Shown one piece after another: positions 3,165 to 48,741 of a DNA stretch of 64,000 bases; the first letter of the stretch is position 1; each line of letters starts with the position of its first letter. The stretch covers positions 262,451 to 326,450 of the forward strand of contig DATNPJ010000034.1 in NCBI GenBank assembly GCA_036703295.1, given 5' to 3'. Source of the stretch: Coleofasciculaceae cyanobacterium. GTDB lineage: Bacteria > Cyanobacteriota > Vampirovibrionia > Vampirovibrionales > Vampirovibrionaceae. Under the pieces are notes generated by a model. It saw only the letters and a program-made list of their open reading frames with translations. It ran no database searches and had not been told where the DNA came from. Made by a program: the position numbers and the translations under genes.

Positions 3165-3962
3165 CTATTTTGGCGCAGTTTTTTGGGTTGCGTCAATGGC
3201 TTCCAGTCTCCGGATCGCTTCCAATCCGATGGTGTTCCCAATTTCGACCCCTTTAGCCTTTTCGTAATAGGGCCGGGCTTCATCCAGCTTGCCCATGTTC
3301 TCCATCAACGTGCCCATGTTGAACAAGGCGCGCTGATCGTTGGGTTGGATTTTCAGTGCCTGCTCGTAGGCCGTCCGTGCTTCTTCCGCCCGTCCGGCTT
3401 TCTGCAACACGCTGCCCTTGTTGAAATAGTACTGACTGTTGCCCGGATCCAGCGTGGTCAGTTTGTCGAAAGTCTGGATGGCCTGATCAAGCTTGCCGTC
3501 AAAAGCATACGCTGTGGAAAGGCCGTTCAAGGTGTTGAGATGCTGCGGATTGATGGCCAGTGCCGTCTCAAAAGCCCCGATGGCCTTTTTGTGATCTTTC
3601 AGGGTCAGGTAGGCAAAGCCGATGTTGCTTTGAGCCTCCACCATCTTGGAATGACTGGCTAGCGCCAGTTCAAAATGCTTGATGGATTCTTTCAGCAGTT
3701 GTTTTTGTCCGGGCAGATTGCCTTTGTCCCTTTGAATCTGGGCAATCTGGAACAGCTCCACGCCCTTGTTGTATTCCACCAGCGCCTTGGCTTCTGGTGT
3801 GGCGGGCGTATCGTCGTCCTGTTTGGCTGCCGCCTGCCCGGAAACGTCGGTTTTTCCCGGCGGATTTTGCGCTTTGGCGTGCACCTCAGTGGCCGAAATT
3901 CCCATGCAGGACACGGCCAATATTAAGCTGATCGATAGATTGATTGCGGATAATCGGAACAT
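3165..3962 (-). CDS. exported tetratricopeptide-repeat (TPR) protein
   Basis: N-terminal signal-like segment and several TPR-pattern repeats (AYLTLKDHKKAIGAFETALAINP; YYFNKG.VL...GR.EEA..AYEQALKIQP). Its start overlaps the upstream stop (TAATG). Confidence 0.85.
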   Translation of the reverse strand: MFRLSAINLSISLILAVSCMGISATEVHAKAQNPPGKTDVSGQAAAKQDDDTPATPEAKALVEYNKGVELFQIAQIQRDKGNLPGQKQLLKESIKHFELALASHSKMVEAQSNIGFAYLTLKDHKKAIGAFETALAINPQHLNTLNGLSTAYAFDGKLDQAIQTFDKLTTLDPGNSQYYFNKGSVLQKAGRAEEARTAYEQALKIQPNDQRALFNMGTLMENMGKLDEARPYYEKAKGVEIGNTIGLEAIRRLEAIDATQKTAPK

Positions 3963-6886: not shown

Positions 6887-7060
6887 TGTTTAATGGTACT
6901 TATCAGGCTAATTCATCTTGCTTATAAAGTAAAAGTCTCTACACTGTTCGAAGTCCAGAGTATCAAGCTCTACATACGATCATAAGATATCGCTTTGGGT
7001 ACCTTTTCGCTATAATCGGGTTCTGTCAGAATCTGGATTATCAAGCGAGGAGTGAGCGAA

Positions 7061-8605
7061 ATGGCTGCAACCGTGCAGAATCCCCAAATGCAATTCGAGA
7101 TTAAGCCCAGCAAAACCAGCGGGCAATCGCAGTTTTTGAACTATATCGGCGGCCAGTGGGTCTCGGCCAAGTCCGGCAAAACCTTCGAGAGCCGCAACCC
7201 GGCGGAGCCCAGCGATGTGATCGGGGTGTTCCCGTCTTCCGGCAAGGATGAAGTGGACGCCGCCGTGGCCGCCGCGAAAAAAGCCTTCGAGAGCTGGCGG
7301 CTCTTCCCGGCGCCCAAGCGGGGTGAGATTCTGTTCAAGGCCGGGCAGATCATGATCGAGCGCAAAGAGGAACTGGCGCGCGAAATGACCCGCGAGATGG
7401 GCAAAGTGCTGGCCGAGGCTCGTGGCGACGTGCAGGAAGTGATCGATATGACCTTCTACGCCGCCGGTGAAGGCCGCCGCATGTTCGGGGAAACCACGCC
7501 TTCCGAATTGCAGAACAAGTTTGCCATGTGCGTGCGGGTACCGTTGGGCGTGGTGGGTCTCATCACCCCCTGGAACTTCCCCATGGCCATTCCCAGCTGG
7601 AAAATCATGCCCGCCCTCATCTGCGGCAACACCTGCGTGATTAAACCGGCCACCGATACCCCGTTGCTGGCGCACCGTCTGGTGGAAATCATGGAAGAAG
7701 CCGGTCTGCCCAAAGGCGTACTGAACATCGTGCATGGTTCCGGCAGCCAGGTGGGCGAACCCCTGATGAGCCATCCGGATGTGAAGCTGATTTCCTTTAC
7801 CGGCTCCACCGATGTGGGCCGCCGGGTGAACGAGGCCTGCGCGCCCAGCTTCAAACGGGTCTCTCTGGAAATGGGCGGCAAGAACGCAGTGGTGATCATG
7901 CCGGATGCCAACCTCGATCTGGCAGTCGACGGCTGCGTCTGGGCGGCCTTCGGAACGTCTGGCCAGCGCTGTACGGCGGCCAGCCGCATCATCGTTCACA
8001 AAGACGTGCACAAGCAAGTGCGCGAAAAGCTGATTGCCCGCATCAACCAATTGAAAACCGGCTACGGACTCAATCCGGAAGTGCAAATCGGGCCGGTGGT
8101 GAACGAAAGCGCCATGAAGAAAATTCTGGAATATATTGAAATCGGCAAGAAAGAAGGCGCCGAACTGGTGACGGGTGGCGAGCGGGATACCGCAGCCGGT
8201 GCCGGCTGGTTCATCAAGCCCACGCTGTTTGATAACGTGAAGCCGAGTATGCGCATCGCCCAGGAGGAAATCTTCGGGCCGGTAACCGCGCTCATCCCGG
8301 TCGGCAGCTTCGATGAAGCCATTCAGGTGGCCAACGGCACCAACTTCGGTCTGTCGCTGGCGATTTACACCAAGGACGTGAACCGCGCGTTTACAGCCTT
8401 GCGCGATCTGGAGTCCGGTCTGGTCTACGTGAATGCGCCCACCATCGGAGCGGAAGTCCACCTGCCCTTCGGCGGTACCAAGGACACCGGTAACGGCCAC
8501 CGCGACGCCGGTCAGACCGCGCTGGAAGTCTTCTCCGAGTGGAAGGCCTGCTTCATCGACTACTCCGATAAACTCCAACGCGCCCAAATCGACACCACCG
8601 ACTAG
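7061..8605 (+). CDS. NAD(P)+-dependent aldehyde dehydrogenase
   Basis: ITPWNFP, KPA, FTGST, catalytic LEMGGKN and GQRCTA, EEIFGP. GAGGAG RBS before ATG 7061. Confidence 0.93.
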
Positions 8606-8622
8606 GCGATTCGGAACCATCA

Positions 8623-8657
8623 AAAAAGCCCCGGAAAATAATCCTCCGGGGCTTTTT
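8623..8657. terminator. bidirectional intrinsic terminator
   Basis: AAAAAGCCCCGGA / TCCGGGGCTTTTT inverted repeat between convergent genes. Confidence 0.85.
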
Positions 8658-8675
8658 AACTTCAGGATGCCGTAA

Positions 8676-9194
8676 TCAGGCGTTCCACTTGTTGAGTACA
8701 AACCGTTCCGTCTTGTCGAGCGGTTGCTGGGTTTCTTGCTCGAATTCTTGCAACCACGCGTCTTTGGCGGGATCGGTTTCTCCACGAAGGCGTTTGACCA
8801 CTTCCCTCAGCTGATTAAGATTCTTCGCACGTTCAGAAGATTTCTGGTCGTATGCCTCACCGGCTTCCTGGCTTTTGGCATGCGCGCGAATCCCGGCTTT
8901 ACCGTCCATATCCGCACCATATTGCACAAAGGCTCCGACCAGTGCCCTTGCGGCCAGAGCGATTTCCCTGGCCCGCAGGGCCTTCAGCTGGAGAGTACGG
9001 ACCAGGGAAGGCGGCTGTTTTTTCAGCTCGGCCTGGCGCTTTTCTACTTTGCGTAATTGCTCACCTGTTTTATCCACAGTGATGTCCAATTTCAGCTCGT
9101 CATAGAGCGGTTTTACTCGCTCGCGCAGTTGTTGCAGGTCCTGCATGTACTCCGGACGACCGGCAAACAGAATCGGTCGGAATGAAGTTTTCAT
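8676..9194 (-). CDS. hypothetical coiled-coil protein (172 aa)
   Basis: GAGGAG RBS upstream; charged helical sequence; converges on the terminator. Confidence 0.7.
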   Translation of the reverse strand: MKTSFRPILFAGRPEYMQDLQQLRERVKPLYDELKLDITVDKTGEQLRKVEKRQAELKKQPPSLVRTLQLKALRAREIALAARALVGAFVQYGADMDGKAGIRAHAKSQEAGEAYDQKSSERAKNLNQLREVVKRLRGETDPAKDAWLQEFEQETQQPLDKTERFVLNKWNA

Positions 9195-9512
9195 CCGTTT
9201 CTAACTCCTCAAACAAAATCTTATTTATGGGATAAACCCAGCCAGTATGGCAAGCGATTTCATGCAGAGTGTAAATAGGGCAGCGAGCCAATTCAGCCCA
9301 GAGGCCCTTTTACTGGTTACTTGCCACCGCTGATGCTGGAGAATTGATTGTATGAGCCCGGTTTTGCTTTTCGAGGGAGCTATCTGCTGGATAGAGTTTC
9401 TGGCAAAAGGTATAAAGATTTTGCTGATTGGACTGACAGAGGGCTGGCGTTGTCATGCGCCTGGTAAAGGGCTATGATGGACGCGGAGAGCATTGAGAAG
9501 AGAGAGAGAGGC

Positions 9513-10868
9513 ATGTCTACCGAGTCCGTTCAAGCAGCATCCGCCAGTGGGACTTCTCCGCTGAAGCAAGTCTACATTGAAGACATCAGTCGGCATGAAG
9601 GCCAGCAAGTGACTTTGCGGGGCTGGATTTACAACAAGCGCTCCAGCGGCAAGCTGCATTTTTTGCAGGTGCGGGACGGCACCGGGGTGATCCAGTGCGT
9701 GGTGTTCAAGGGCGATGTGTCTCCCGAGGTGTTCGAGGCCGCCGAGCATGTCGGCCAGGAATCCTCCGTGGAAGTGACCGGTCTGGTGAAGGAAGACAAG
9801 CGCTCTCCGCTGGGCTTTGAGCTGGGCGTGACCGATTTCAAGGTCCTGCAACCGGCAACCGATTACCCCATCAGCCCCAAGGAACACGGGGTGGCCTTCC
9901 TGATGGATCATCGCCATCTCTGGCTGCGCTCGTCGCGCCAACATGCCATCATTCGCATCCGGGCGGAGATTATCCGGGCGGTTCGCAATTATTTTGATGG
10001 TCAGGGCTTCACCCTGATCGACGCGCCTATTTTTACCCCCAGTGCCTGCGAAGGTACTACCAACCTGTTTGAAACCGAGTACTTCGATGAAAAGGCGTAC
10101 CTCACCCAGAGCGGACAGCTCTACATGGAGGCCGGGGCGGCAGCGTTTGGCAAAGTCTATTGCTTCGGGCCGACTTTTCGGGCGGAAAAATCCAAAACCC
10201 GCCGCCATCTCACCGAATTCTGGATGGTAGAGCCGGAAGTGGCCTTTATGGACCTGGCTGGCGATATGGATCTGGCCGAGGATTTTGTGGCGTTTATCGT
10301 TCAGCAGGTGCTGCGCAACCGCCGCCCGGAACTGGAACTGCTGGAACGGGACATCAGCAAGCTGGAGGCCATTCAAAAGCCTTTCCCCCGCGTGACCTAC
10401 GATGAGGCCATCGAGATCATCCGGCAGCACGGGACGGAGCCTGAACACAAGAATTTTCCGTGGGGCGAGGATTTCGGCGGTGATGAGGAGACCATTATTT
10501 CCAACCGCTTTGATCGCCCGGTGCTGATCCATCATTATCCGGCTGAAATCAAGGCGTTTTACATGAAGGCGGATCCGCAGAATCCGAAGCTGGCCTTGAA
10601 TGTAGACATGATTGCGCCCGAAGGCTACGGTGAAATCATTGGGGGCGGGCAGCGCGAGGAGGATTTAGACGTGCTGTTGGGTAAAATTCAGGCGCATGGC
10701 TTGCCGATGGACGCGTTTGAATGGTACCTGGATTTGCGCAAGTACGGTAGTTTCCCGCATTCCGGCTTCGGACTGGGAATTGAACGCACCGTCGCCTGGA
10801 TCTGCGGTCTGCACCATGTTCGCGAAACCATTCCCTTCCCCCGCCTGATGGAGCGTCTGCGCCCCTGA
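9513..10868 (+). CDS. asnS: asparagine--tRNA ligase
   Basis: OB-fold ([22 protein letters not shown]), [50 protein letters not shown]. Confidence 0.95.
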
Positions 10869-11740
10869 GAATCCGTTGCTGGCGGCTTTGGCAATAGGAA
10901 ATGCTTGAAGAACAATTTGAAGTCCATGTGGATGCCCACATCCGTATTATGGGGATCCCGGAGCGAGATTTGCTGGTTGGGGAGATCAATCGTTTCAACC
11001 GCAAAGCCATGGGTGCCACGTATTTTGTCCCCGAGATCCAGGAATTTGTTCTCTGTTACAGGTTGCTTGGTGAAAGTGGTCATAACATACCGGTCAGGAT
11101 TGTCGGCATACCGCTCGAATGCTTTTAAAGCGGTTTCCGTATTAGCGATACGGACTGGTTCTATTTGCCAGCCGGTGAAGTCCCCGATAACTTTAGAAGA
11201 AGAGTAATGATATTCCTTGCTGTTATAAACATCTAAAACCTTGTGGTCCGGTATTTTCCTATATTTCAGAGGATGTAACGTCTTCATGAGCCTGGCATAA
11301 GCTACCTCAAGGATTCTGGCTTCCAGGCTGCCACGCACTTGTTTAGGTTGGAACCCTTCCATCATTTTCCGCTGATCTCTGATTTCTGCAGCACGCACAG
11401 GAATCTTGAGGTGAGGGTATGGTTTGAATTCAATCAGGAAATCGCCATTTTTCTGAGGGTGAATCATCCGGGACAGTAGTCGGGTGCCTGTTCGATTGCG
11501 CGACAAGGCAAAGAGGACGCTTAACAACTGGCAATCATTCAAGGCCCCTTGCGCCAGGTGTAAGGACTTTATATTGGACGGCATCGATCGAACGTGCAAA
11601 TTTCTGGCGGTTTTGCCAAAACCTACAGTGTCTTGAGTGTTGGTTCGTCTTGTCGTCAGGCTTTGTGGCGCCCCTTTGGAGCCCCTAAAGGGATCAGAGG
11701 TGTCCTGTACCCACTTGAAGGAATGTACTGACAGGGACAT
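10688..11740 (-). CDS. calpain-like (clan CA) cysteine peptidase; 3' end overlaps asnS
   Basis: [11 protein letters not shown] resembles the calpain QG.LGDCW motif; LE.AYA; HGFAV (His); LRDPH where calpains have LRNPW; F..F.KHF terminal motif. Confidence 0.6.
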
Positions 11741-11929
11741 TATGCTTTTCTCACTTACTTTGAATAAAATATTAACTAAGCTACTACATTTGACGCAAGA
11801 AATGTAAATTTTCGGGTAGTTTAGGTCAGGGCGCTTGCATTCCCGAGAAGCATATCCTTCCGAACAGTTTCATTCGGACAGAGGATAAGGAGCGGATCGT
11901 AAAGAGGGTATGCTTCCAGAGAGGAAGGC

Positions 11930-11956
11930 TAAACTTTTGCCGAATTCTGCCGAAAA
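11930..11956 (+). promoter_or_regulatory. sigma-28 (FliA)-type promoter of the tad operon
   Basis: TAAACTTT-N11-GCCGAAAA, 7/8 and 7/8 matches to TAAAGTTT-N11-GCCGATAA, about 100 nt upstream of cpaB. Confidence 0.75.
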
Positions 11957-12054
11957 TACCCTGGTGACGAACCCCTGGTAATGAGCCAAGGTTTCCAAGG
12001 AGCCGCGCTCCGATTCAACGTCGGATGCTCGCAAGTGGAAAGGTAAGACCGTAC

Positions 12055-13107
12055 ATGCCAGCGCCCCGTAAACCCAAGAAAGTTCTCATCCAGTTCGCGA
12101 TTGCCCTGGTGGTCGCTGCCGTGCTGGGCATTGGCGCCGTGATTGCCGGCTTCTCCGTGATCATGTCGATTAATGATGGCGCGACCAAGGCGCAGGAGGA
12201 AGCAAAACAGGCAGCGGCAGAGGCCAAGGCGGAACTTGACAGAATTAAGAAGCAGAATGAGAAGCCTGTGGTGGAGGCGCCCCAGGAATTCGAAATTGTT
12301 CAGGCGGTTGGCGAAATCAAGCAGGGTGAGCCAATCACTCAGGGTAAATTGACCAAGCTTACAGTGAAAGAACGTCCGATGCCGGGTACTATCGAGAATT
12401 TGTCCCAGGCGGTCGGTAAAATCTCCAAGGTGCGGATCATTGAAGGTGAAATCCTGAATATGAGTAAGCTGATTGATTCCTCCAGCATGCTGAACGTTGA
12501 TACCGGCATGCGGGCCATTACCATCAACGTGGATAACATCGGCAGCCTGAACGGGGCTTTGATGCCCGGTATGCGGGTGGATGTTCTGGCCACGGTCAAG
12601 CAGGACGAGAAAGTGGTCACCCGCACCATGTTGCAAAACATCCAGGTGATAGGCGTTGGCAGTGGCGGTGCGGCGGCGGGGCCTGCAATGCCGACAATGC
12701 CGGCGGCATTGAGCTCCAAAATTCCCGCTCAGGTCAGTGCTCCCAGCGGTGGGGGGGCTGCCAGTGCAGTGACGTTCTTGGTCAGTCCCAAGCAAGCCGA
12801 GCTGCTGTCACTGGCCAACCAGACATCCCAGATTCATCTGACTTTACGCAACTACGGCGACAAGCAGGTAACGAAGGTGATGGGTGCTGATGTCAGTGTG
12901 CTGATGACCGGCATTGAGAGCGACACCGTCAAGAAATCGTTGCCTAATATGCCTTTCCCGCCGGGTGACAGTGGTTTTCATAATGTTAATTACGCGCCGG
13001 GCGGCAATCTGCCCAATCCGCCGGATGCCGTCGGTTCGTCAAAGAACAAGTTCAGTATGCGCATCTATCGGGGCACTGGCGCGGAAACCGTGGATTTTGA
13101 GCAGTGA
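12055..13107 (+). CDS. cpaB: Flp pilus assembly protein CpaB/RcpC
   Basis: N-terminal TM helix, SAF-like domain, GMRAITINVD...GAL.PG.RVDVL, T..MLQNI.V, VTFLVSP.QAE.L.LA. First gene of the tad cluster. Confidence 0.9.
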   Translation: MPAPRKPKKVLIQFAIALVVAAVLGIGAVIAGFSVIMSINDGATKAQEEAKQAAAEAKAELDRIKKQNEKPVVEAPQEFEIVQAVGEIKQGEPITQGKLTKLTVKERPMPGTIENLSQAVGKISKVRIIEGEILNMSKLIDSSSMLNVDTGMRAITINVDNIGSLNGALMPGMRVDVLATVKQDEKVVTRTMLQNIQVIGVGSGGAAAGPAMPTMPAALSSKIPAQVSAPSGGGAASAVTFLVSPKQAELLSLANQTSQIHLTLRNYGDKQVTKVMGADVSVLMTGIESDTVKKSLPNMPFPPGDSGFHNVNYAPGGNLPNPPDAVGSSKNKFSMRIYRGTGAETVDFEQ

Positions 13108-13132
13108 TGGACTTGGAAGAGCAGAGGAAGAC

Positions 13133-14650
13133 ATGAGTATGAGTGGGAGACGAGGAGCACGCATCGTGCCGGTAGCGATGGCCATCGCTATTGTGGCTCA
13201 GTTGCTGCCGGTTGTGACTTTGGCAGGCGAGGGTCCGGCAAAATCGACTGCTTATTCCGGCCAATTGCAAGGGGTTGGGTTTGATATCCCGATGCCGAAA
13301 GCTGGCAAAACTGCAGCAAAAAGCGATGATGACAAGTCCGGCTACGCTTTTCAGCAGTTGGATGAAGAGGGGGATGCGTCCCTGTCTTCGGGAAAGACAC
13401 TGCAAGGAACCGTGACCAGCATCAACGTGACGCGTGGTCGCTCACAAATCGTCAAGTTTGCCCAACCCATCATGCGCATGTCGATTGCCCAGCCTGATGT
13501 TGCGGATGTGATTCCGCTGGCTCCCGATCAAATCATGATCAACGGAAAGCTGCGCGGGGTGACTTCGCTCATTGTCTGGGATGAGAACGGTCAGGAAGGC
13601 ATCTTTGACCTCTACGTGCAAAACGATACCAGCGAGTTGCTGGAGGCGGTCAAGGCCGTGGCTCCCCGCGAGAAAATTCAGGCACGGGTAACGGATGACT
13701 CTTTCATCCTGACGGGGCAGGTGTCCAGCAGCGTGACCCTGGATGAAATCCGCAAGACTGCGGCGGCCTATGGCTACCGCGAGGACAAATTTATCGATCT
13801 GACCGATACGCCGGTACCCCAGGTGATGCTGGAAGTCAAAATGGTGGAAGCCAACCGCAGTGTCGGGCGGCAGTTGAAGACTTCCTTCAATCTGGAAAAT
13901 TCCAACCAGGCATTCAATGCCGTGCGTTTAGCCAATCCCATCGATGGCAAGGTTCTTGAGGGAGCCGCCCGTCAGACTAGCGGCTTAAGGGCTGATCGCT
14001 TGTTCAGGACGGGCTCGTCTCCCCTGAACAATATTGCGCTTAGCCAGGCAGGCGGCAATGTGGGTGGCCTTACCGGTTCCATGTATTGGGGCAAGCATTT
14101 CCAGAGCGTGTGGGACCTGTTGGAAACAAAGGGGAAGATCAACACGCTGGCCAACCCCACTCTGGTCTGTACTCACGGCCGTTCGGCCAGCTTCCTGGCT
14201 GGTGGTGAATTCCCCTTTGTCGGTTCCGTGGATGCCAACGGCAGTCCGATTGTATCGTATAAGGAATTTGGGGTGAAGCTCAATTTTACCCCCTGGATTG
14301 CCATCAAGTCCGGCCGGATCGAACTGACAGTTCAGCCCGAAGTCAGCAGCGTCGATTCATCCCATTGTGTCACTTCGACTTCCGGTAATCAGGTCTGCGG
14401 TATTTTGAAGCGGACCACCAATACGACCGTTGAATTGATGGATGGTGAAAGTTTGATGATTTCGGGGATTCTAAGCCGCGAAGAACAGAACACCTTTGCC
14501 AATGTCCCTTTCATCGCCAGCGTGCCAATTCTGGGCAACATGTTCAGAAATGCGAACATGTCCAAGAACGATAGCGAACTGATTGTGATTGTGACCCCGC
14601 ACATCATCAAATCGAGCGATTACGGCAGAATCCTGGGCGCTGCCCAATAG
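13133..14650 (+). CDS. cpaC: Tad secretin RcpA/CpaC
   Basis: Signal peptide; pilus-N domain (GRSQIV.F...I.R.SIA.PDVADV); QV.LEVK.VE; LANPTL...GRSASFLAGGEFP; EFGVKL.FTP; P...S.PILG.MFR; ELIVIVTP. Confidence 0.9.
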   Translation: MSMSGRRGARIVPVAMAIAIVAQLLPVVTLAGEGPAKSTAYSGQLQGVGFDIPMPKAGKTAAKSDDDKSGYAFQQLDEEGDASLSSGKTLQGTVTSINVTRGRSQIVKFAQPIMRMSIAQPDVADVIPLAPDQIMINGKLRGVTSLIVWDENGQEGIFDLYVQNDTSELLEAVKAVAPREKIQARVTDDSFILTGQVSSSVTLDEIRKTAAAYGYREDKFIDLTDTPVPQVMLEVKMVEANRSVGRQLKTSFNLENSNQAFNAVRLANPIDGKVLEGAARQTSGLRADRLFRTGSSPLNNIALSQAGGNVGGLTGSMYWGKHFQSVWDLLETKGKINTLANPTLVCTHGRSASFLAGGEFPFVGSVDANGSPIVSYKEFGVKLNFTPWIAIKSGRIELTVQPEVSSVDSSHCVTSTSGNQVCGILKRTTNTTVELMDGESLMISGILSREEQNTFANVPFIASVPILGNMFRNANMSKNDSELIVIVTPHIIKSSDYGRILGAAQ

Positions 14651-14680
14651 TTTCCGGAAATCTGGAGAAAATTCCAAATC

Positions 14681-15916
14681 ATGGCCGAACATCTGACAGT
14701 CCTGATCATCGACGAGGATGCCGCGAACCGGGCGTTGATCCGTGACACGCTGTCCGAGAACCAGAACGTGGAAATCCTGGCGGAAACGGACAGCCTGGTA
14801 TACGGCTATGAGCTGATTCGCCAGAACCGGCCCAAAATGGTGTTCATGGATCTTCGCCAGGATCCAGGCAAGGCGCTGGACATGGCCCGGCGCGTTTCCT
14901 CCTTTTTTAACGAAGTTCTGATGATCGCCTCGGGCGATACGATGAGCCTGGATATGATCAAAGCCTGCATGGAGGCCGGTGTTCGGGATTTCCTGCAACG
15001 GCCACTGCAAGCGGCTGATATTCGGAGCATCATCGATAAGCACAAAATGGCCCTGGTGGCGGATAACAAGGCGGGTGACCGCACCGGACGCATCGTGACA
15101 GTTTTCAGTAACAAGGGTGGCTTGGGTAAAACCACCATTGCCGTCAATTTGGCCATCGCCTTGTCCGAGACCGTCGGGAAACCCGTGGCCCTGGTCGATT
15201 TGAACCTGCAATTGGGGGACATCACCACTTTCCTGGATGTGGAACCCAAGCAGACCATTGTGGATATTGCGCGCAACATCGGGCGGGTCGATGCCGCCTA
15301 CCTCGAAAGCTCGCTGGCCCAGTTTGTCTGCCCCACCAACGGGGCGACCCTGCATGTGCTGGCCGATCCGCTGCACGTGGAAGACGCGGAGGAACTGACC
15401 GCCGATCAGATTAACGCGGTGTTGACCGTGCTTCGGGCGTCGTTTGAATACGTGGTGATTGATACGACCACTTCATTTGACACCAAGACCTTGGCCGCCT
15501 TGGATTTGGCGGATCATATCCTGCTGGTTTCCATGGTGAACCTGCCCAGTATCCGTAGCAGCCAGCGTTTGTTGAAATTGTTTGAACGCCTGGGTTACGA
15601 GGAACAAAAGATCAAGCTGACGCTGAATCGTTATATGCCGGACGAAGAGATCACCGTGGATGACGTGGAAGAGACATTGGAACACCAAGTTTTCTGGAAA
15701 ATCCCCAACGCCTACCAGGTGGTGATGACGGCCATCAACCGGGGGATTCCGATTGCCATGGTCGACAACGGACATAACATGCAGAAGAATTTCCTGGATT
15801 TTGCCGCCAAGCTGACTGGGGTTGTGCGTCCCACCACGAATGCCGGGTCGGCTGCCGCGCCCCAGCAGAAGAAAGAATCGAAGAGTATGCTGGGTGGGCT
15901 TTTTGGAAAACGTTGA
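14681..15916 (+). CDS. cpaE: pilus assembly protein CpaE/TadZ (receiver domain plus ParA/MinD-like ATPase)
   Basis: N-terminal REC domain (IIDED, VFMDL); KGGLGKTT deviant Walker A; LVDLNLQLGD; follows the secretin. Confidence 0.88.
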   Translation: MAEHLTVLIIDEDAANRALIRDTLSENQNVEILAETDSLVYGYELIRQNRPKMVFMDLRQDPGKALDMARRVSSFFNEVLMIASGDTMSLDMIKACMEAGVRDFLQRPLQAADIRSIIDKHKMALVADNKAGDRTGRIVTVFSNKGGLGKTTIAVNLAIALSETVGKPVALVDLNLQLGDITTFLDVEPKQTIVDIARNIGRVDAAYLESSLAQFVCPTNGATLHVLADPLHVEDAEELTADQINAVLTVLRASFEYVVIDTTTSFDTKTLAALDLADHILLVSMVNLPSIRSSQRLLKLFERLGYEEQKIKLTLNRYMPDEEITVDDVEETLEHQVFWKIPNAYQVVMTAINRGIPIAMVDNGHNMQKNFLDFAAKLTGVVRPTTNAGSAAAPQQKKESKSMLGGLFGKR

Positions 15917-15956
15917 AAGTCGGAAAAACACTGAGCAAGAGGAACGCTGAAGGTTT

Positions 15957-17441
<1,485 letters not shown>

Positions 17442-17457
17442 TCCGAGAGCCTGATCC

Positions 17458-18462
17458 ATGTCGATTGAGTTAACCCTGATTCTGATTCTGGTTTTCGCCG
17501 GACTGGCCACGCTGGCCGTGGGCTCTGCCGTGTTCTTCTTCCAGCGGTACAGCAATCCGGAGCCATCGGTGATCCAGCAGCGGCTGATCCGAATCAAGGC
17601 GAAACAGCAGCAGCAGGACAAGCAGGCGGAAACCGAGGCAATGCAGCGGTTTTCCAAGTTGTATAAAGAGGGTGGTTATAACAACGAGAACCTGGGCAAG
17701 CAGCTCGAACAGCTCAACTTTTTCAATCACCTGAAAACCATGATGCAACAGGCCGGCATGAAAACCCCACCGGACAAGTATTTCATTACCAGCATGCTGA
17801 TGCCTTCCATTCTGTTGATGGTGCTGGGACTGGCGATTGGTATGTTCCCACTGGCGCTGCTAGGTCCAGGCGCTGGGGTTTTGGCTTATTTTGTGGTGGT
17901 TTTCAAGCGCGGCAAGCGCTTCGATAAATTCGTCACCCAGTTGCCGGACGCCCTCTCCATGATCACCAGCGCCCTGCGGGCCGGGCATTCCTTCCAGTCA
18001 GCGCTTGGCGTGGTCGCAACCGAGTTGGCGGATCCCATCGGGTCCGAGTTCTCGAATATCGTACGGGATATTAACCTGGGGATTCCGGTGAAAGAAGCTT
18101 TGAATCGTATGGTCGGCAAGCTGGACGCCCTGCCCGATGTGCGCATGTTTGCAACCGCCGTCCTGATTCAACGGGAGGCGGGCGGGAACCTGGCCGAGAT
18201 TCTGGAGAAATTGGGCTACACCATTCGGGAACGCTTCAAACTGAAGGGGCAAATTGCTTCGCTGACCGGTCAGGCCCGATTGACCGGTTACGTTTTGGGT
18301 GGCGCGCCCGCCTTTCTGCTCGTGGGCTTGTCGCTCTTTATGTACAGTTACGTTAAACCCTTGTGGGAAACGGATTTGGGTCATGCTTTGCTGATTCTGG
18401 CCGTGATTATGCAGGGGATTGGATTTTTTATCATGAAAAAAATCGTCGACATCCGGGTGTAG
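17458..18462 (+). CDS. tadB: Tad inner-membrane platform protein TadB
   Basis: QLPDAL.MI.SALRAGHSF, GGNLAEILEKL..TIRER.KL.GQI.SLTGQAR. Confidence 0.92.
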   Translation: MSIELTLILILVFAGLATLAVGSAVFFFQRYSNPEPSVIQQRLIRIKAKQQQQDKQAETEAMQRFSKLYKEGGYNNENLGKQLEQLNFFNHLKTMMQQAGMKTPPDKYFITSMLMPSILLMVLGLAIGMFPLALLGPGAGVLAYFVVVFKRGKRFDKFVTQLPDALSMITSALRAGHSFQSALGVVATELADPIGSEFSNIVRDINLGIPVKEALNRMVGKLDALPDVRMFATAVLIQREAGGNLAEILEKLGYTIRERFKLKGQIASLTGQARLTGYVLGGAPAFLLVGLSLFMYSYVKPLWETDLGHALLILAVIMQGIGFFIMKKIVDIRV

Positions 18463-18465
18463 TGC

Positions 18466-19458
18466 ATGGATAAGACAGCCGCCACAGAAATCCTGAGTCC
18501 AAACCATATCGTGTTGCTGATTATCGGCGGCATTATTCTGATCCTCTCCATTTTTGGCGTGCTGGCGGTGCTGATCTCCATTTTGAACTACCAGGAAACT
18601 CCCGTACGCGATCGTCTGATGATGCTGAAAGACAAAGGGGCCACTTTCGAAGCGGGACAACGCAATTCCGGCGCGTTTGATGATCTGAAAGAGGCGCTGC
18701 TGACATATTCCGGCCCCATTTCCCAAAAACTTTACGGCGAGAACCAAAAGCTCCAGAAAGAGATTAAGCAGTTGCTGACGGAAGCCGGACTGCCGGACAC
18801 GGAAACCCATGTCTGGGCATTCTTGACCAACATGGTGGCGGCGGGTTTGGCTTTGGGCATCATTATGGGCGCGTTGGGCCTGTTGGTATCGGGATTCAAC
18901 GTGGCAATGGCTGCGGTCGGTCTGCTGGTCGGGTTTATTGTGGGAACCAAGCTCCCCAAGTTCCAGTTGCATGGCCGGACCAAAAGCCGTAAAACCGAGA
19001 TCCGGTTCGCCTTGCCCGATACGTTGGACCTGATGGTGGTTTGCGTGGAGGCCGGTCTCGGGCTGGACTCCACCATTCAGCGGGTGGCCGAGGAAACCGA
19101 ACGCATGGCGCCCGAAATTTCCCAGGAATTCAAGCGACTGAACAAGGAACTGAACGCCGGTATTTCTCGAATAGAGGCATTCCAGAACATGGGACAGCGG
19201 GCGGGAGTGGATGAACTCCGTTCGTTATGCGCCATGATTGTCCAGGCCGACAAGATGGGGACCAGCATTTCCGATACCTTGCGGGTGTATGCCGACGATT
19301 TGCGGGTTAAGCGGAAGCAGAAGGCGGAAGAACTCGCCTCCAAGGCCAGCATCAAGATGACGTTTCCGCTGGTCCTGTTTATTTTTCCGCCCATGTTCAT
19401 CGTGCTGATCGGTCCCACGGTCATTATGGCCATCCAGCAGTTCTTCCCCTCCAAATAG
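18466..19458 (+). CDS. tadC: Tad inner-membrane platform protein TadC
   Basis: LPDTLDLMVVCVEAGLGLD, Q.DKMGTSISDTLRV.ADD.R.KR.QKAEE.A.KAS.KM.FPLVLFIFP. Confidence 0.92.
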   Translation: MDKTAATEILSPNHIVLLIIGGIILILSIFGVLAVLISILNYQETPVRDRLMMLKDKGATFEAGQRNSGAFDDLKEALLTYSGPISQKLYGENQKLQKEIKQLLTEAGLPDTETHVWAFLTNMVAAGLALGIIMGALGLLVSGFNVAMAAVGLLVGFIVGTKLPKFQLHGRTKSRKTEIRFALPDTLDLMVVCVEAGLGLDSTIQRVAEETERMAPEISQEFKRLNKELNAGISRIEAFQNMGQRAGVDELRSLCAMIVQADKMGTSISDTLRVYADDLRVKRKQKAEELASKASIKMTFPLVLFIFPPMFIVLIGPTVIMAIQQFFPSK

Positions 19459-19492
19459 CGATCGCTGCCGCTGATTCGGCTAGAATAACGCT

Positions 19493-20314
19493 ATGCCACT
19501 ATTCACCCATAACACGCTGCGCCTGACCGAGCGCCGGATTCCCCTTCAGCGGTTGCCCCAGGCATTCGAGGGGCTTAAAATCGCGCAGATTTCGGACCTG
19601 CATTTTTACGAATATACCGATCACGCCTATTACGACCGCGTGGTGGAAGCCGTCAACGCGATGGCGCCGGATGTCATCGTGTTAACCGGCGATGTGGTGC
19701 ATTACGGTCCGGATTTTATTCCGGCGGCGGGGGCTTTTTTGAGGCGGTTGGAGGCCCGGCATGCCCGGCTGGCGATTCTGGGCAACCATGATTACCAGGA
19801 CGGGGCCATGAGTCGTCATATTGCCGCCATGTACGCCGACATCGGCTTTGAGTTGCTGGTCAACCAAAGCCGGGCCATCGAACAGGACGGCCATCGCCTT
19901 TGGTTTGCCGGGCTGGATGACTTGTACTACGGCGAGCCGGATATCGCGCGGGCACTTTCGGGTGTTCCCACGCAAGATGAGATGACCATTATGCTGGCGC
20001 ACAACCCGCTGCTGTTTGATCCGGTGGCCCTGGCAGGGCAAGGCCGGGTGGATTTGGTGATTTCCGGGCATACTCATGCCGGGCATATCTATATTCCCCC
20101 GCTGGGGCCGATTTACCGCAAGGTGTTCCGCATGAAGTACCGTTACGGCCTGTACGAGAAAAACGGCTGCCAGCTGCATGTGACCAGCGGCGTGGGCTCC
20201 GCTGCGTTTTATCTCAAAAAACACCGCATCGGCTTCCCCCGCCTCCGCTTCAATACCCACCCGGAAATCGCGGTGTTGGAGCTGGTTTCCGGAGATGTCA
20301 TCGCTTCAGTGTAG
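19493..20314 (+). CDS. calcineurin-like metallophosphoesterase (YkuE-like)
   Basis: SDLH, LTGDVV, LGNHD, LAHNP and SGHTHAG metal-binding motifs. Confidence 0.88.
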   Translation: MPLFTHNTLRLTERRIPLQRLPQAFEGLKIAQISDLHFYEYTDHAYYDRVVEAVNAMAPDVIVLTGDVVHYGPDFIPAAGAFLRRLEARHARLAILGNHDYQDGAMSRHIAAMYADIGFELLVNQSRAIEQDGHRLWFAGLDDLYYGEPDIARALSGVPTQDEMTIMLAHNPLLFDPVALAGQGRVDLVISGHTHAGHIYIPPLGPIYRKVFRMKYRYGLYEKNGCQLHVTSGVGSAAFYLKKHRIGFPRLRFNTHPEIAVLELVSGDVIASV

Positions 20315-20339: not shown

Positions 20340-21320
20340 TTAAGTAGTTTGCTGCTGGCTGGTTATTTTGCTGTCTGCATGCCTGCCTGAAAAGCCCAAA
20401 TAAACCACCAGAAACACGGCCGAAGCAACGGCGACCGCAGTGCGTTCCGTCGATCCGACGTTACGATTGAGGGAAATCATGCCTTCAATCAGCCCGGCAA
20501 TCACCAGCAGCGGCACACAACCCAGGATCAGCACCAGAGATTCCTTGGCTTTCAGTCTCACGGCCTGCCAGCGGGGCAGATCACCGGGAAACAACAGCGT
20601 GAACCCAATCAGCATACCAGCGGCCCCGGCGATAAAAATGGTGCTCAGCTCAATCACGCCGTGGGCAGTGATGAAATTTAGCAACCTCCCACCCATGCCA
20701 TGCTGAATACAAACCTGAAGCGGCCCCCCGAAGGCGAACAATCCGTTATGCAGCAGCAACAATAAACTGCCCACGCCGAAGACAATCCCGAAAGCAAAGG
20801 CGTTGAAGGCCACCCGGATGTTGTTGGTCATCAGGAAGCTGGATTCCGACGGGTTGGCCTGGGTGCGATCCGTCCACAGCACGCCTTGGTCCAGTTGCGC
20901 GATGACCGGGGGTGGCAGGAAAAACGTTTCGGTTTCCGGGTTTGTGCGCACGATGATCATGGCGATGGCCGAGCCCAGCAGGAACATGAAAGTCGCCAGA
21001 ATAATCAGCATGATGTTTTTGCGGAAACAGCGGGGAAACTCGATCAAGAAAAAATTCGACACATCCTGGAAACGGGCGGGCGGATGTTCGTATACCCGGC
21101 CATGACCACGCTGTACCAGGTTGTTCAGATAAGGCTCCAGATGCTGGAACTCGGGCGAAGCCTGTGCGCGGGACAGATCGGTGACCGCCTCGCGATATAA
21201 CGTAGCCATCTCCCGGATTTCTGCTGGAGAAAGTAGGGCCACAGAATGCCTGGACTTTGCCAGCAGCGTTTCCAGCTTTTCCCAGTGGGGCTCCTGCTCG
21301 ATGAACCAGCGCTTCATCAT
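20340..21320 (-). CDS. stage II sporulation protein M (SpoIIM/DUF95) family membrane protein
   Basis: W..LE.LL, LYR....DLS.A, YLN.LV.R.H..VY, I.TNNIRVAF.AFA.G, HGVIELS.I.IAG.AG, AG.IEG. Start placed at ATG 21320, not the long ORF start. Confidence 0.82.
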   Translation of the reverse strand: MMKRWFIEQEPHWEKLETLLAKSRHSVALLSPAEIREMATLYREAVTDLSRAQASPEFQHLEPYLNNLVQRGHGRVYEHPPARFQDVSNFFLIEFPRCFRKNIMLIILATFMFLLGSAIAMIIVRTNPETETFFLPPPVIAQLDQGVLWTDRTQANPSESSFLMTNNIRVAFNAFAFGIVFGVGSLLLLLHNGLFAFGGPLQVCIQHGMGGRLLNFITAHGVIELSTIFIAGAAGMLIGFTLLFPGDLPRWQAVRLKAKESLVLILGCVPLLVIAGLIEGMISLNRNVGSTERTAVAVASAVFLVVYLGFSGRHADSKITSQQQTT

Positions 21321-21455
21321 ATGTCGGTTTTTCGTTTCCTCCTCGGGTCCAGGCTTGCCTTTCCGGATCCACTCTCCTACTATCGGTGAAAAGGGTCGGT
21401 TTTGACAAGCGTCCCTGACCAGAGAGGCACCGCGGCAACCGGACAAAGGGCTTTC

Positions 21456-22184
21456 ATGGAATTTCGCTCCATCCATACGGTAGAAACCGCCGACCACATC
21501 CAACTGAAAGTGGAATTGGCCGGGCTGGCCAATCGGCTGTTCGCTTATCTGATCGACAGTCTGGTCATGATGTCCATGATGGGGGTTTTGGTGCTGGTGT
21601 TCACCTTGCCCGCCTTTCTCCGCGGGACGCCGGAGCTGAGCAAGACCGCGATGCCGCTGGGCATGTTCCTGATTATTTTTGGGTATCACCTGGTGCAGGA
21701 ATGGTTGTGGAACGGAAAAACCATCGGCAAGAACATCATGGGTATTCGGGTGGTGCGCAACGATGCGCAACCGATTGGTTTCTGGGAGTCCCTGGGCCGC
21801 AACCTGCTGCGGGTGCTGGATGTCTATGTGTCCGGCATCGGGTTGCTGGTCATGCTGTTCAACCCGGATGAAAAACGCCTGGGCGACTTTCTGGCCGGGA
21901 CCATTGTTATTAACGATCAACCGGTCCTCAAGCCGAGCCGTCCCCAATGGACTCCCCCCGAACCGGCGGCGGATGAGGGCATGCTGACCGCCGCCTGTCA
22001 GCTTTCCCCCGAGGAGGCTGAGCTGTTGAAGGCATACCACACTCGGCGGGCGGGCCTGTTTGCGGAATCGCGCCGCAAGATAGCCTCGGCGCTGTGTCGC
22101 TATCTCAGCGAGCGCCTGCATCAGCCGGTTGAAAACGAGGCGGCACTGGACGCCCTGCTGGCTGATTATGCCCGGCAGCGATAA
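21456..22184 (+). CDS. RDD family membrane protein
   Basis: LAGL.NR.FAYLID, GKTIGK..MGIRVV, LGRNLLR.LD, EKRLGD.LAGTIV; divergent from the SpoIIM-family gene. Confidence 0.85.
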   Translation: MEFRSIHTVETADHIQLKVELAGLANRLFAYLIDSLVMMSMMGVLVLVFTLPAFLRGTPELSKTAMPLGMFLIIFGYHLVQEWLWNGKTIGKNIMGIRVVRNDAQPIGFWESLGRNLLRVLDVYVSGIGLLVMLFNPDEKRLGDFLAGTIVINDQPVLKPSRPQWTPPEPAADEGMLTAACQLSPEEAELLKAYHTRRAGLFAESRRKIASALCRYLSERLHQPVENEAALDALLADYARQR

Positions 22185-22187
22185 CTA

Positions 22188-23657
22188 CTACGGGCCGTAA
22201 GCTGGAACCCGTGTGGCGTGTGCGGCGACGATGGCGTTCAGCTGGGCTTCCGTCACCGCTTCCACGGTGGCTTGCAGGATGGGCGTGAGCGCGTCCGGAT
22301 GTATGACGCTTAATGAAAGCACGGCGGGAGCCTGGGCGCCCAGCGGCAGCGGACTGGCCGTGCTGAAGGCAATGGCGAAATCTCCGCTGGTGGTGGCCAT
22401 GATGCTGCCCGTATTCCCGATTCCCAACGCTGCCCGCTGAGCCACCTGACGCAATGCCTGGGCATCCAGGGGCAAGTCGGTGGCAATCACCACGATTGCC
22501 GAACCTTGCCGGGACTCAGGGTGGGTTCCCGTGGTTGAGGGGCGGACGGCCTCATCGGCGCTATCGGCGGTTCTCATGCGCTCCACCGGCATACTCCACG
22601 AACGCTCTAGCGCTGTTTTTAGCAGCGGGTTCAGGGTGTTCAGCTTGCTGTGGTTTGCGTTCACCAGTACTCCGATGGTGTACTCCCGGTTGTTGACGAC
22701 CACCCGGCGGGAAGCCGAGCCGATGCCCGCATGCAACTCAAACGAACGCATGCCGGTTCCGGCGCCGACCCGTCCTTGGGGCACCACGCCGCTTCGGGCG
22801 CTCTCAATGGCCATAACGGTATCTTGCGCAGCCTGCACAGGTTCTTCAATCGTGTTGAAAAAGCCGTCCCAGCATTCGCCCACTACGGGCAGCTGACCTT
22901 CCCACTGGCCGGGATAATGCTGCGCGAAATACTCGAAAACCCCCTGATGGGCCGCACCGACCGCATAGGTGTTGGTAAGGATGATGGGTGAATTCAGAAT
23001 CCCGGCGGTTTGCAGCGGCCCCATGCCGGTGAGTTCGCCGTTGCCGTTCAGCATGACCGCCGAAGCCCGAAAGCCGGTGGTTGCCAAGTTCCCTTTGCCG
23101 CCGGTCAGCAGGGTCGCATCCGGCACGATGGCGGTGACCCCGGTCCGGATTTTGTTGGGGCGGTCCCGGTATAAACTGAGATGGCCGACCTGAATCCCCG
23201 GAACATCCGTAATGGCGTTGTACGCCCCAGTGGGAAACTGTTGCCAGTGCCCCGGAATCAGCCGTTCCGGACGGGTGGAGACGCCCATCACGATGGGATC
23301 GCTGCCTGCCGGAATCACCAGCAGTCGTAGCGAGTCGCCTTCGGGCCTTGGGCCTTCAGATGCAGGTGCGCCCGCCGTTGGTTCCACTTGCTGGGTGGGG
23401 CCTTGTTGTGTGATTGGCACCTCCGGCAGTTTATCCGGAAGGCTGGCCGGGCGTGTTTCGGTTTGCGCACCTGGGATTTTCGAGGCTGGTTTTTCCAAGC
23501 CCGCAGCAGGCGTTGGGTTGGCAGGGATAACCGATTGCCCCATCACGGGCGGGGCCGCGACTGTCACGCCAGCATTCAGCAGCAACGCGCACACGGCCAA
23601 CACGATGAGCGGTGCTGGCCGCCGTTGGAAACCGGCGGGCGGGGATGCTGTTTTCAT
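22188..23657 (-). CDS. secreted DmpA/P1-family aminopeptidase (Ntn-like, self-processing)
   Basis: NAITDVPGIQVGH, RTGVTAI, NGNGELTG, PVVGECWDG, GRVGAGTGM, G|SAIVVIATD processing site. Signal peptide plus Pro-rich linker. Confidence 0.85.
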   Translation of the reverse strand: MKTASPPAGFQRRPAPLIVLAVCALLLNAGVTVAAPPVMGQSVIPANPTPAAGLEKPASKIPGAQTETRPASLPDKLPEVPITQQGPTQQVEPTAGAPASEGPRPEGDSLRLLVIPAGSDPIVMGVSTRPERLIPGHWQQFPTGAYNAITDVPGIQVGHLSLYRDRPNKIRTGVTAIVPDATLLTGGKGNLATTGFRASAVMLNGNGELTGMGPLQTAGILNSPIILTNTYAVGAAHQGVFEYFAQHYPGQWEGQLPVVGECWDGFFNTIEEPVQAAQDTVMAIESARSGVVPQGRVGAGTGMRSFELHAGIGSASRRVVVNNREYTIGVLVNANHSKLNTLNPLLKTALERSWSMPVERMRTADSADEAVRPSTTGTHPESRQGSAIVVIATDLPLDAQALRQVAQRAALGIGNTGSIMATTSGDFAIAFSTASPLPLGAQAPAVLSLSVIHPDALTPILQATVEAVTEAQLNAIVAAHATRVPAYGP

Positions 23658-23773
23658 GCAGTGCCTCACTCTGGTTGGAATGCGTTCAAGCTGGGTTTTA
23701 CTCTCAGTTTAAAGCATTTTGAAGGGTTTTATACACTTCCGCGCTCCGATTTCGACCCCGGAACCCTCAAAGG

Positions 23774-43409: not shown

Positions 43410-43430
43410 AGGGAAGTCTCCTGATTGGTT

Positions 43431-43679
43431 CTAAGACTGATGGACGGGAGAGGGGTGATCCGGTACGGGATCGAGCCCGCCGGGATTCAAGGGATGGCAT
43501 CGTAACAGGCGTTTGAATCCCAGCCAGGTTCCGGCCGCCACACCGTGGCGTTCGACTGCCTCATACATGTAGCTTGAACAGGTGGGGTGGAACCGGCATA
43601 GCGGGGGGAAAATCCATCGCCGCCACCCGGCACTCATCCGATAAGCCTTTATTAAAGCAAGAACAAGGGATTTCAGCAC
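43431..43679 (-). CDS. yidD: membrane protein insertion efficiency factor YidD
   Basis: CRF.PTCS.Y..EAV..HG...G.WL...RLLRCHP...GG.DPVP. Confidence 0.93.
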
Positions 43680-43701
43680 GTATTTAATGCTTTCTTAAGG
43701 A

Positions 43702-48466: not shown

Positions 48467-48741
48467 ACGAAAGGGTGAAAATCTCGCGCAAAAAGATTAA
48501 TATTTGTTTACAGGTGCCGTCATTGCTTGTTAAAGCCATCGTCAGGCATCCGGACAGGCAGAAGAATTGCTATCGTTTATAATGGTAAGGCGTCGGCTTC
48601 CCCCCGGCCCGCTATGAGAAATACAAGAACCGGATCAGAGGCCTATGATAGACTTCTTTCGACAGCATTCCCGCTGGATAGCGGCAATAATGGTGCTTTC
48701 ATTCTTGCTAACCTCCTTTATCGTCCTTTTCTGACTTGTTT

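Follow-up and report, generated by a model that had tools for sequence, protein, structure and literature searches.

A Tad/Cpa pilus core operon with a metallophosphoesterase gene and distant pilin candidates in a relative of Vampirovibrio chlorellavorus

The seven-gene locus and its conservation

The stretch of DNA analysed here (the window) comprises 64,000 nucleotides (nt) of contig DATNPJ010000034.1 of the assembly GCA_036703295.1, and all coordinates given below are window positions on its forward strand. At 12055-20314 it carries six genes of a Tad/Cpa pilus machine, followed by the gene of a metallophosphoesterase (MPE). The window sequence is represented in soil metagenomes and by a 317-kb contig of the Joint Genome Institute (JGI). 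The closest relatives of its TadA belong to Vampirovibrio chlorellavorus and other metagenome-assembled genomes (MAGs) of Vampirovibrio or Vampirovibrionales (79-82% identity), with a 'Melainabacteria' MAG at 70%; for V. chlorellavorus itself the identity of TadA is 80-82%. Judged by sequence, the host is a soil relative of the algal predator V. chlorellavorus. Domains were called with Pfam and NCBIfam profile searches, with essentially all open reading frames (ORFs) of the window being scanned with Pfam. The seven genes are:

12055-13107 (+): cpaB/rcpC, membrane-anchored periplasmic linker between platform and secretin; TIGR03177 at 123 bits (cut-off 71), PF16976, SAF and RcpC domains.
13133-14650 (+): rcpA/cpaC, outer-membrane secretin of 505 amino acids (aa), full length with an N-terminal pil_N domain; PF00263 at 134 bits, PF13629 at 65 bits.
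14681-15916 (+): cpaE/tadZ, receiver domain and ParA/MinD-type ATPase; PF00072 at 42.3 bits (cut-off 30.2), AAA_31, CbiA and ParA.
15957-17441 (+): tadA/cpaF, hexameric motor ATPase; PF00437 (T2SSE) at 220 bits.
17458-18462 (+): tadB/cpaG, inner-membrane platform protein of 334 aa; PF00482 (T2SSF) at 62 bits; orthologues 37-67% identical.
18466-19458 (+): tadC/cpaH, inner-membrane platform protein of 330 aa; PF00482 (T2SSF) at 82 bits; orthologues 39-66% identical.
19493-20314 (+): MPE, gene 7, cytoplasmic calcineurin-like enzyme of the YaeI/LpxG type; PF00149 at 57.8 bits (cut-off 21.5).

All seven genes lie on the + strand with intact reading frames, and the gaps between them amount to 25, 30, 40, 16, 3 and 34 nt. 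No terminator-like site was found in the tadC-MPE gap, and a convergent SpoIIM-like gene begins 25 nt past the stop codon of the MPE gene. An earlier reading of the letters alone (the sequence-only reading) had described a contiguous cpaB-rcpA-cpaE-tadA-tadB-tadC run with a phosphoesterase about 35 nt past tadC; the run is borne out by the Pfam and NCBIfam profiles and the gap was measured as 34 nt. The start of cpaB at 12055 (MPAPRKPKK) is common to its orthologues and to the JGI gene call. The secretin gene starts downstream of 12914, the start given in the ORF list, as its signal peptide begins at M74, which corresponds to nt 13133. The start of tadA was placed at 15957 because the head MSLRDRLKKPG is kept in nine orthologues. 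We consider it probable, with this grade applying to the best explanation as a whole, that 12055-20314 is a single operon encoding the core that spans the envelope in a canonical Cpa/Tad (type IVc) pilus machine.

For comparison, nine loci of Vampirovibrionales relatives were used (L001-L005, L012 and L087-L089), of which L002 is the locus of a V. chlorellavorus MAG. The order cpaB-rcpA-cpaE-tadA-tadB-tadC-MPE is kept in L001, L004, L005, L012, L087, L088 and L089 and, as far as the contigs reach, in L002 and L003. Protein identities over which the block is conserved range from 82% down to 30%, with TadA being 62-82% identical within the order. As the broader synteny is also kept among close relatives, distant orthologues of the MPE and their contexts were examined, and L087-L089 were found in this way. 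The block is intact in L087 (MPE 49% identical), flanked by asnS upstream and SpoIIM downstream, in L088 (MPE 40%), with FliJ-, FliK- and FlgE/F/G-like flagellar genes upstream (117-2352) and an AMP-binding enzyme downstream, and in L089 (MPE 36%), with a flagellar rod/hook gene upstream (1685-2521) and PheT and PheS downstream. The upstream flank is asnS, an aldehyde dehydrogenase or flagellar genes, and the downstream flank (SpoIIM, AMP-binding enzyme, PheST and others) differs even within Vampirovibrio. All seven reading frames being intact and the block being kept throughout the order, the operon is under selection. In both L088 and L089 the tad block lies immediately behind the flagellar genes on the same strand; in L089 a gene for a PilB-type ATPase (MshEN and T2SSE domains) is additionally found about 1.6 kb upstream of cpaB, past the flagellar gene.

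The MPE gene is joined to tadC in all 8 relatives whose contigs cover that part. As this junction is kept despite the changing flanks, the MPE is best described as a lineage-specific yet fixed member of the operon. Its assignment to the operon by the sequence-only reading is thereby strengthened, with the gene being the seventh one across the order. Outside the order it was not found at all: 74 tad loci of other phyla, recovered with the same TadA query, served as the comparison set for the make-up of the operon, and this MPE occurs in none of them (0/74). The order-wide linkage of the MPE and the separation of the core from the pilin genes look undescribed so far; papers on Tad or Flp in Vampirovibrio did not turn up in full-text literature searching.

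Core proteins and absent parts compared with known Tad systems

The core proteins themselves are ordinary. TadA aligns with CpaF of Caulobacter (9e24) over residues 16-476 at an E-value of 5e-137, and the secretin matches RcpA in the PDB (8odn, E-value 1e-42), with 8jvb being aligned across query residues 97-498, which is almost end to end. The best PDB matches of CpaE are ATPases of the ParA/MinD type, and its deviant Walker A lysine is kept in 69/78 relatives. The receiver domain of CpaE does contain the acceptor aspartate that the sequence-only reading had pointed out (D57 in VFMDL), and D57 is kept in 10/10 Vampirovibrionales sequences. The feature is not special, however, since 51 of the 78 related CpaE proteins also have an aspartate at this position, and the active site is incomplete: D11, D13 and S84 are present, while the lysine position is occupied by Arg107 in all members of the Vampirovibrionales. 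In L001 and L002 (V. chlorellavorus) the acidic pocket consists of E11 and N13. The receiver-like domain of TadZ from Aggregatibacter has been described as atypical, whereas the Response_reg match in the window lies above the cut-off and retains the aspartate, with lysine being replaced by arginine.

A similar picture emerged for the Pro/Ala-rich N-terminal arm of TadA, which is present as claimed but turned out to be a common variable linker. Residues 12-66 consist of 38% Pro and Ala and of 80% P/A/G/S/T/Q, and the N-terminus as a whole is composed of the conserved head MSLRDRLKKPG and a variable, low-complexity, disordered linker of about 55 aa. The head peptide is found in a weaker form in other phyla. 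Arms of at least 69 residues, i.e., of at least equal length, occur in 14 of 80 relatives, and CpaF of Caulobacter (501 aa) has a similar length and a disordered N-terminus, with two of its three deposited forms starting near the equivalent of residue 70. In a TadA tree with 81 rows, made up of the window protein and its 80 nearest relatives, the Melainabacteria group in a single clade (SH-like approximate likelihood ratio test, SH-aLRT, of 100) on a long stem. This clade sits inside the CpaF proteins of Chloroflexota, Bacillota, Wallbacteria, Nitrospirota, Thermodesulfobacteriota and Acidobacteriota, so that TadA groups among ordinary CpaF proteins of non-predatory phyla, an outcome which the sequence-only reading had named as speaking against its own idea of a predatory machine.

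The most conspicuous property of the locus is what it does not contain. A motif search of small ORFs revealed no ORF with an Flp-type leader in or beside the operon, and the prepilin-peptidase motif GxGDxK is absent from the entire window. No Pfam match to Peptidase_A24, TadE or TadG was obtained among the scanned ORFs, and TadE/TadF pseudopilins, the accessory protein TadD, TadG and RcpB were not found in the window. The statement of the sequence-only reading that flp, tadV/cpaA and the genes for TadD/E/G are missing from the operon therefore holds after motif and Pfam scans. Among the 74 loci from other phyla, a normal-size Flp ORF (mature part 41-54 aa) lies within about 10 kb in 49 and an A24 motif in 31, and 13 have a TadD-like gene with tetratricopeptide repeats (TPR) just downstream of tadC. 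In none of the nine Vampirovibrionales relatives (0/9) was Flp or A24 detected within this distance. Tad pili are usually encoded by one transferable locus with the pilin gene at its edge. In the window and in all nine relatives, by contrast, the core is located apart from the pilin genes. Tad systems have been reported to be 'almost exclusively' of the single-locus kind, with scattered ones being very rare (Denise et al., 2019).

A TPR protein encoded at 3165-3962 was considered as a TadD. It is secreted and, with 265 aa, of TadD size, but its repeats are generic, it has no clear lipobox and its gene is 8 kb off, for which reasons it was rejected. The gene is followed by that of a GGDEF diguanylate cyclase (2001-3134); both lie on the - strand, 8 kb upstream of cpaB, and the pair is found in the same place in L005. 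It may conceivably act as a TadD-like component or as a cyclic di-GMP input.

The order of the core genes (cpaB, secretin, cpaE, cpaF, tadB, tadC) is that of the Cpa system of Caulobacter crescentus, and the secretin is likewise of the RcpA/CpaC kind. Unlike in Caulobacter, the operon in the window lacks the leading pilA and cpaA genes as well as the lipoprotein gene cpaD, has no genes for TadD or TadE/F/G nearby and continues after tadC with the MPE gene. Compared with the flp-tadV-rcpCAB-tadZABCDEFG locus of Aggregatibacter actinomycetemcomitans, the window has homologues of rcpC, rcpA, tadZ, tadA, tadB and tadC in matching relative order, whereas flp, tadV, rcpB and tadD-G are absent and the single-locus layout is lost. 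The closest counterpart is found in V. chlorellavorus, for which a cpaB-cpaC-cpaE-cpaF-tadB run (IMG 2600255508-2600255512) has been tabulated (Soo et al., 2015; PMC4451040, Table S3). Because of its secretin type and the lack of a tadE gene, this run is regarded as the orthologue of the window operon. The same table lists a second cluster (tadE-cpaB-BON-secretin-cpaE-cpaF-tadB-tadC, 2600256298-304), one pulO peptidase gene (2600256317) 13 genes from this second cluster, four dispersed 'Flp pilin' genes, one TadE/G-like gene and a full set of type IVa pilus genes. The proteins of the V. chlorellavorus locus L002 are 63-82% identical to those of the window locus, and for V. chlorellavorus, too, the Flp, pulO and tadE-like genes are listed elsewhere. 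In the paper itself the genes are treated just as 'type IV pili', and micrographs with thick pilus bundles near the polar flagellum are cited; no mention is made of tadC or the phosphoesterase, of the core lying apart from the pilins, of how large the Flp-like proteins are or of the order-wide conservation.

Phosphoesterase, candidate pilins and surroundings of the operon

The metal-ligand motifs of the MPE (D35-x-H37, GD67, GNH99 with N98 and H99, H170 and GH193-x-H195) are invariant in 51 homologues, and its AlphaFold2 (AF2) model has a mean predicted local distance difference test (pLDDT) score of 92. It thus shares the calcineurin-like fold and every metal-binding motif with metallophosphoesterases of the YaeI/LpxG/YkuE type. 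The best NCBIfam matches, YaeI (96.6 bits, equivalog cut-off 188) and LpxG (95.4 bits, cut-off 350), are, however, far under the cut-offs, and the MPE of the window differs from these enzymes also in lacking a signal peptide or anchor and in its tad-specific operon context. The absence of an N-terminal signal peptide or anchor is common to the tad-linked MPEs, whereas the unlinked homologue P0134 has one. The attempt to derive a substrate from structure failed: no PDB sequence match was obtained at an E-value of 0.01 or below, and Foldseek returned generic superfamily matches with template modelling (TM) scores of about 0.5 (Mre11, NadN, 5'-nucleotidases and YmdB). The MPE diverges at about the same rate as TadB and TadC. 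Homologues with 37-41% identity, found in the contexts L090-L092, do not lie beside tad genes. A role as regulatory phosphodiesterase or phosphatase is our preferred guess of what the MPE may do.

The sequence-only reading had also noted pilin-like genes 22-50 kb away from the operon, and these were recovered as three ORFs, each with a G/xxxxEY motif and a hydrophobic helix:

41288-42190 (+): candidate pilin 1, 300 aa, Flp-type leader SG/NVLTEYG; PF04964 sub-threshold at 17 bits (E-value 0.005); aligns with the giant-Flp family.
61535-62548 (+): candidate pilin 2, 337 aa, Flp-type leader and helical-bundle domain.
62733-63740 (+): candidate pilin 3, 335 aa, tandem paralogue of candidate pilin 2.

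With 300-337 aa these proteins are far larger than the mature Flp pilins of about 41-54 aa in related loci. The giant-Flp family to which they belong comprises 14 clusters in 5.8 billion proteins, and three of these clusters are labelled 'Flp pilus assembly pilin Flp' by JGI. G-1, E+5 and Y+6 (G8, E13 and Y14 of candidate pilin 2) are invariant in 15 sequences, which argues for processing of the giant Flp proteins by a prepilin peptidase. The confident part of the AF2 model of candidate pilin 2 is a helical bundle at residues 117-300 (pLDDT 75-94), for which no PDB fold match was obtained at an E-value of 0.001 or below. In relatives the giant-Flp genes form tandem arrays of 2-4, and three such contexts were analysed (L082, L083 and L086). 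In L083, from the Vampirovibrio-like MAG GCA_902168245.1, four tandem genes are located at 8955-13185, encoding proteins of 349, 327, 357 and 313 aa; the residue following the tyrosine differs between these (EYA, EYC, EYC and EYS) and the three proteins of the window (EYG). Their motif and their co-occurrence in the lineage make the giant Flp proteins candidates for the pilins of this machine.

Immediately upstream of the tandem giant-Flp genes of the window lies a 75-aa Flp-like ORF (61152-61379, +), in which Asn at -1 and Gln at +5 replace Gly and Glu. Because of these two residues and the lack of a Pfam match, it is doubtful as a normal Flp. No counterpart of it was seen near the giant-Flp arrays of L082, L083 and L086, and it was the sole product of a relaxed motif search for normal-size Flp in the window and in 13 Vampirovibrionales-derived loci.

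Three elements were found upstream of cpaB:

11868-11889 (+): conserved block TTTCATTCGGACAGAGGATAAG, a possible regulator site; aligned upstream of cpaB in the window, L001, L003, L004 and L012, with a similar block in L087.
11907-11914 (+): conserved GGTATGCT, which holds a TAnnnT-type -10-like hexamer (TATGCT).
11930-11956 (+): sigma-28 (FliA)-type promoter-like site, TAAA-N15-GCCGAAAA, a consensus match 99 nt before the cpaB start.

Across the Vampirovibrionales the consensus of the first block is TTTCATTCGGAyAGAGGATaAG. The second element is exact in 6/10 loci (window, L001, L004, L012, L087 and L088) and has one mismatch in L003 and two in L089; an interpretation as sigma-54 element was discarded, as its GG-GC spacing is wrong. 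Together, TTTCATTCGGACAGAGGATAAG and GGTATGCT may constitute an activator site plus a -10 element, which would make them a further candidate promoter shortly upstream of the sigma-28-like site. With no more than one mismatch allowed, the latter was the sole match to TAAA-N15-GCCGATAA in the window (0.14 expected by chance); L003 and L004 carry it at the corresponding position, and L012 has its -35 part. The sigma-28-like site, the conserved upstream blocks and the location of the tad block behind flagellar genes in L088 and L089 together suggest, at the level of sequence, that the operon is co-expressed with the flagellar programme. In Caulobacter the polar pilus is co-ordinated with the flagellar pole, and by analogy it is plausible that this also applies here.

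The remainder of the window contains dnaA, rnpA, yidD and yidC (44675-46057 and 42318-44073), which places it at or near the chromosomal replication origin, and its cumulative GC skew climbs steadily. It is also rich in hydrolases, encoding an S58/DmpA-type aminopeptidase (22188-23669), an M23 peptidase (48736-49917), an 822-aa glycoside hydrolase of the GHL10 type (57501-59969) and an M55 D-aminopeptidase (14-727). Divergent from cpaB lies a 350-aa ORF (10688-11740, -) with calpain-like Cys/His motifs, for which Pfam Peptidase_C2 gave just 16.8 bits (E-value 0.004). It is not called by the JGI gene caller, and its final 60 codons or so are antisense to asnS. Two homologues of 280-284 aa (39-41% identity) were found for it in 5.8 billion proteins and none at this position in related loci; judged from these sequences it is probably a real but rare gene with a true size of about 285 aa. 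Two further ORFs were dismissed: 7010-8785 (-) is spurious, running antisense to an aldehyde dehydrogenase gene (7052-8605, +), and the 593-aa ORF at 20340-22121 (-) is over-extended, consisting of a 326-aa SpoIIM/DUF8413 gene and the antisense of an RDD-family gene (21456-22184, +).

Proposed function and alternative explanations

By sequence and architecture, the locus is a canonical Tad/Cpa core operon, that is, a new organisational variant of a known machine and not a Kil-like one. Three traits hold order-wide: pilin and peptidase genes are absent from the operon, the MPE is fixed as gene 7, and the only Flp-type pilin candidates are oversized and encoded elsewhere. In this machine, TadB and TadC form the inner-membrane platform and TadA/CpaF the hexameric motor, with CpaE/TadZ acting as docking and localisation factor and CpaB joining the platform to the RcpA secretin channel. 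The following steps are proposed for its working. The fibre subunits would be encoded elsewhere, the best candidates being the three Flp-type prepilins of 300-337 aa with a helical bundle, which would be cut after the invariant glycine by an A24 peptidase whose gene would lie in another part of the genome (V. chlorellavorus has one gene of the pulO type). The minor pilins would likewise be encoded elsewhere. The operon would probably be switched on with the late flagellar genes, and its product would be polar, probably retractile pili with which the cell would attach to surfaces or prey; attachment to prey in particular is plausible, given the taxonomy of the host and the old micrographs. The MPE would be a YaeI/LpxG-type enzyme which lost its N-terminal anchor and was recruited into the operon in this order; its most likely activity would be the hydrolysis of a small phosphodiester or phospho-protein signal by which the machine is tuned.

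Instead of an adhesion pilus, the operon could encode a contact-dependent killing apparatus like the Kil system of Myxococcus or its homologues in Bdellovibrio; a similar role in prey contact or killing had been raised as an inference by the sequence-only reading. The Kil system of Myxococcus xanthus is Tad-derived, its pilins (KilP) and Tip clusters are dispersed, and TadD, TadG and RcpB are missing (Seef et al., 2021; Herrou et al., 2025), all of which is reminiscent of the window locus, and the host lineage is predatory by taxonomy. The hallmarks of Kil are an FHA-fused ATPase, many FHA proteins, a single ATPase without TadZ, a short secretin without N0 and an arrangement in two gene clusters (Seef et al., 2021). 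The four of these that were tested (FHA on TadA, FHA proteins in the cluster, lack of CpaE and a short secretin) are absent from the window: CpaE is encoded, the secretin has 505 aa and a pil_N domain, and Pfam revealed no FHA domain on TadA or any other operon protein. An FHA-fused ATPase was not present among the 80 nearest TadA relatives either; homologues with a long N-terminus, which had been considered as FHA-fused KilF, are over-extended ORF calls without an FHA domain. The tips of Kil are furthermore minor pilins of the TadE/F/G type, unlike the Flp-type candidates here, and outside the order the nearest relatives of TadA are the CpaF proteins of Chloroflexota, Bacillota, Wallbacteria, Acidobacteriota and others. 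Attack on prey by V. chlorellavorus has been assigned to a conjugative-type type IV secretion system (Soo et al., 2015; PMC4451040). Neither the architecture nor the tree of TadA with its 80 nearest relatives lends support to an analogy with Kil and Bdellovibrio, and we consider a killing apparatus highly improbable. It is also conceivable that a second tad cluster makes the pili with ordinary Flp, which would leave the operon as a back-up or as a secretion or pseudopilus device for the Flp-like proteins of about 300 aa. That a second tad locus accounts for the pili had been named as a possible objection by the sequence-only reading, and this objection applies in part, as the sister species V. 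chlorellavorus has the second cluster with tadE mentioned above, 13 genes from pulO; no pilin or peptidase gene was found near the operon in any of the nine relatives, which fits as well. On the other hand, all seven reading frames are intact and the block is kept order-wide, and a normal-size Flp was not found near the giant-Flp arrays or tad blocks examined, with the sole short Flp-like ORF (61152-61379) deviating at -1 and +5. A redundant or repurposed core thus appears improbable.

With regard to the MPE, the alternative is that of a mere passenger, either an LpxG-like lipid A pyrophosphatase or a YaeI-like phosphodiesterase, which is co-transcribed but has no role in the pilus. This idea fits with YaeI and LpxG being the best NCBIfam matches, with the homologues in unrelated contexts, with the absence of the gene from tad loci outside the order and with the generic fold seen by Foldseek. 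It is difficult to reconcile with a tadC-MPE junction that outlasts at least four downstream and three upstream contexts, down to 36% identity, and with an MPE that diverges in step with its two upstream neighbours and scores far under the equivalog cut-offs. In addition, the tad-linked clade lacks a signal or anchor of the P0134 type, which would be odd for an enzyme acting on a membrane lipid. We regard the passenger as doubtful, if a serious candidate. The closest named relatives of the MPE being YaeI and the lipid A enzyme LpxG, a housekeeping passenger is at the same time one of several points which weigh against the reading of the operon as an MPE-tuned pilus machine. The prepilin peptidase and the minor pilins were not located within the window, and the second tad cluster of V. 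chlorellavorus could be the main pilus maker. For the giant Flp proteins, the PF04964 (Flp) scores of 17 and 13.7 bits are below the cut-off of 32.2, the pilin N-terminus in the model of candidate pilin 2 is of low confidence, and neither tad nor peptidase genes lie beside the giant-Flp genes in L082, L083 and L086. The sigma-28-like site is a single consensus match of a kind which 14 of 100 shuffles also gave, and it was not seen in L001, L005 and L087-L089. Sequencing runs with the region amount to four, all of them DNA metagenomes and none of them RNA, and the host may be predatory, a lifestyle which is taken from its taxonomy.

A bolder version of the proposed pilus machine, which we put forward as a speculation and hold to be rather unlikely, is that the Tad motor and channel were uncoupled from the pilin genes and became dedicated to Flp pilins with a helical bundle of about 250 aa, with the MPE and the CpaE receiver forming a lineage-specific switch which times extension and retraction of the pilus with the flagellar programme during the attack on algal prey. 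If true, Tad fibres with a globular head of their own would be seen here for the first time. What can be stated for the order as a whole is that it keeps a bare core operon, adds to it the gene of an enzyme absent from the 74 tad loci of other phyla and offers as sole pilin candidates oversized proteins encoded elsewhere. If these parts do not co-operate, the locus is an ordinary adhesion-pilus core which has already been tabulated, uncommented, in the genome paper of V. chlorellavorus. If they do co-operate, the locus would be a natural case of a Tad machine tolerating very large subunits, and the phosphoesterase would be a candidate for a new regulatory input. It would then also give a concrete molecular entry point to the polar 'pili bundles' which electron micrographs show on V. 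chlorellavorus, a pest of algal cultures.

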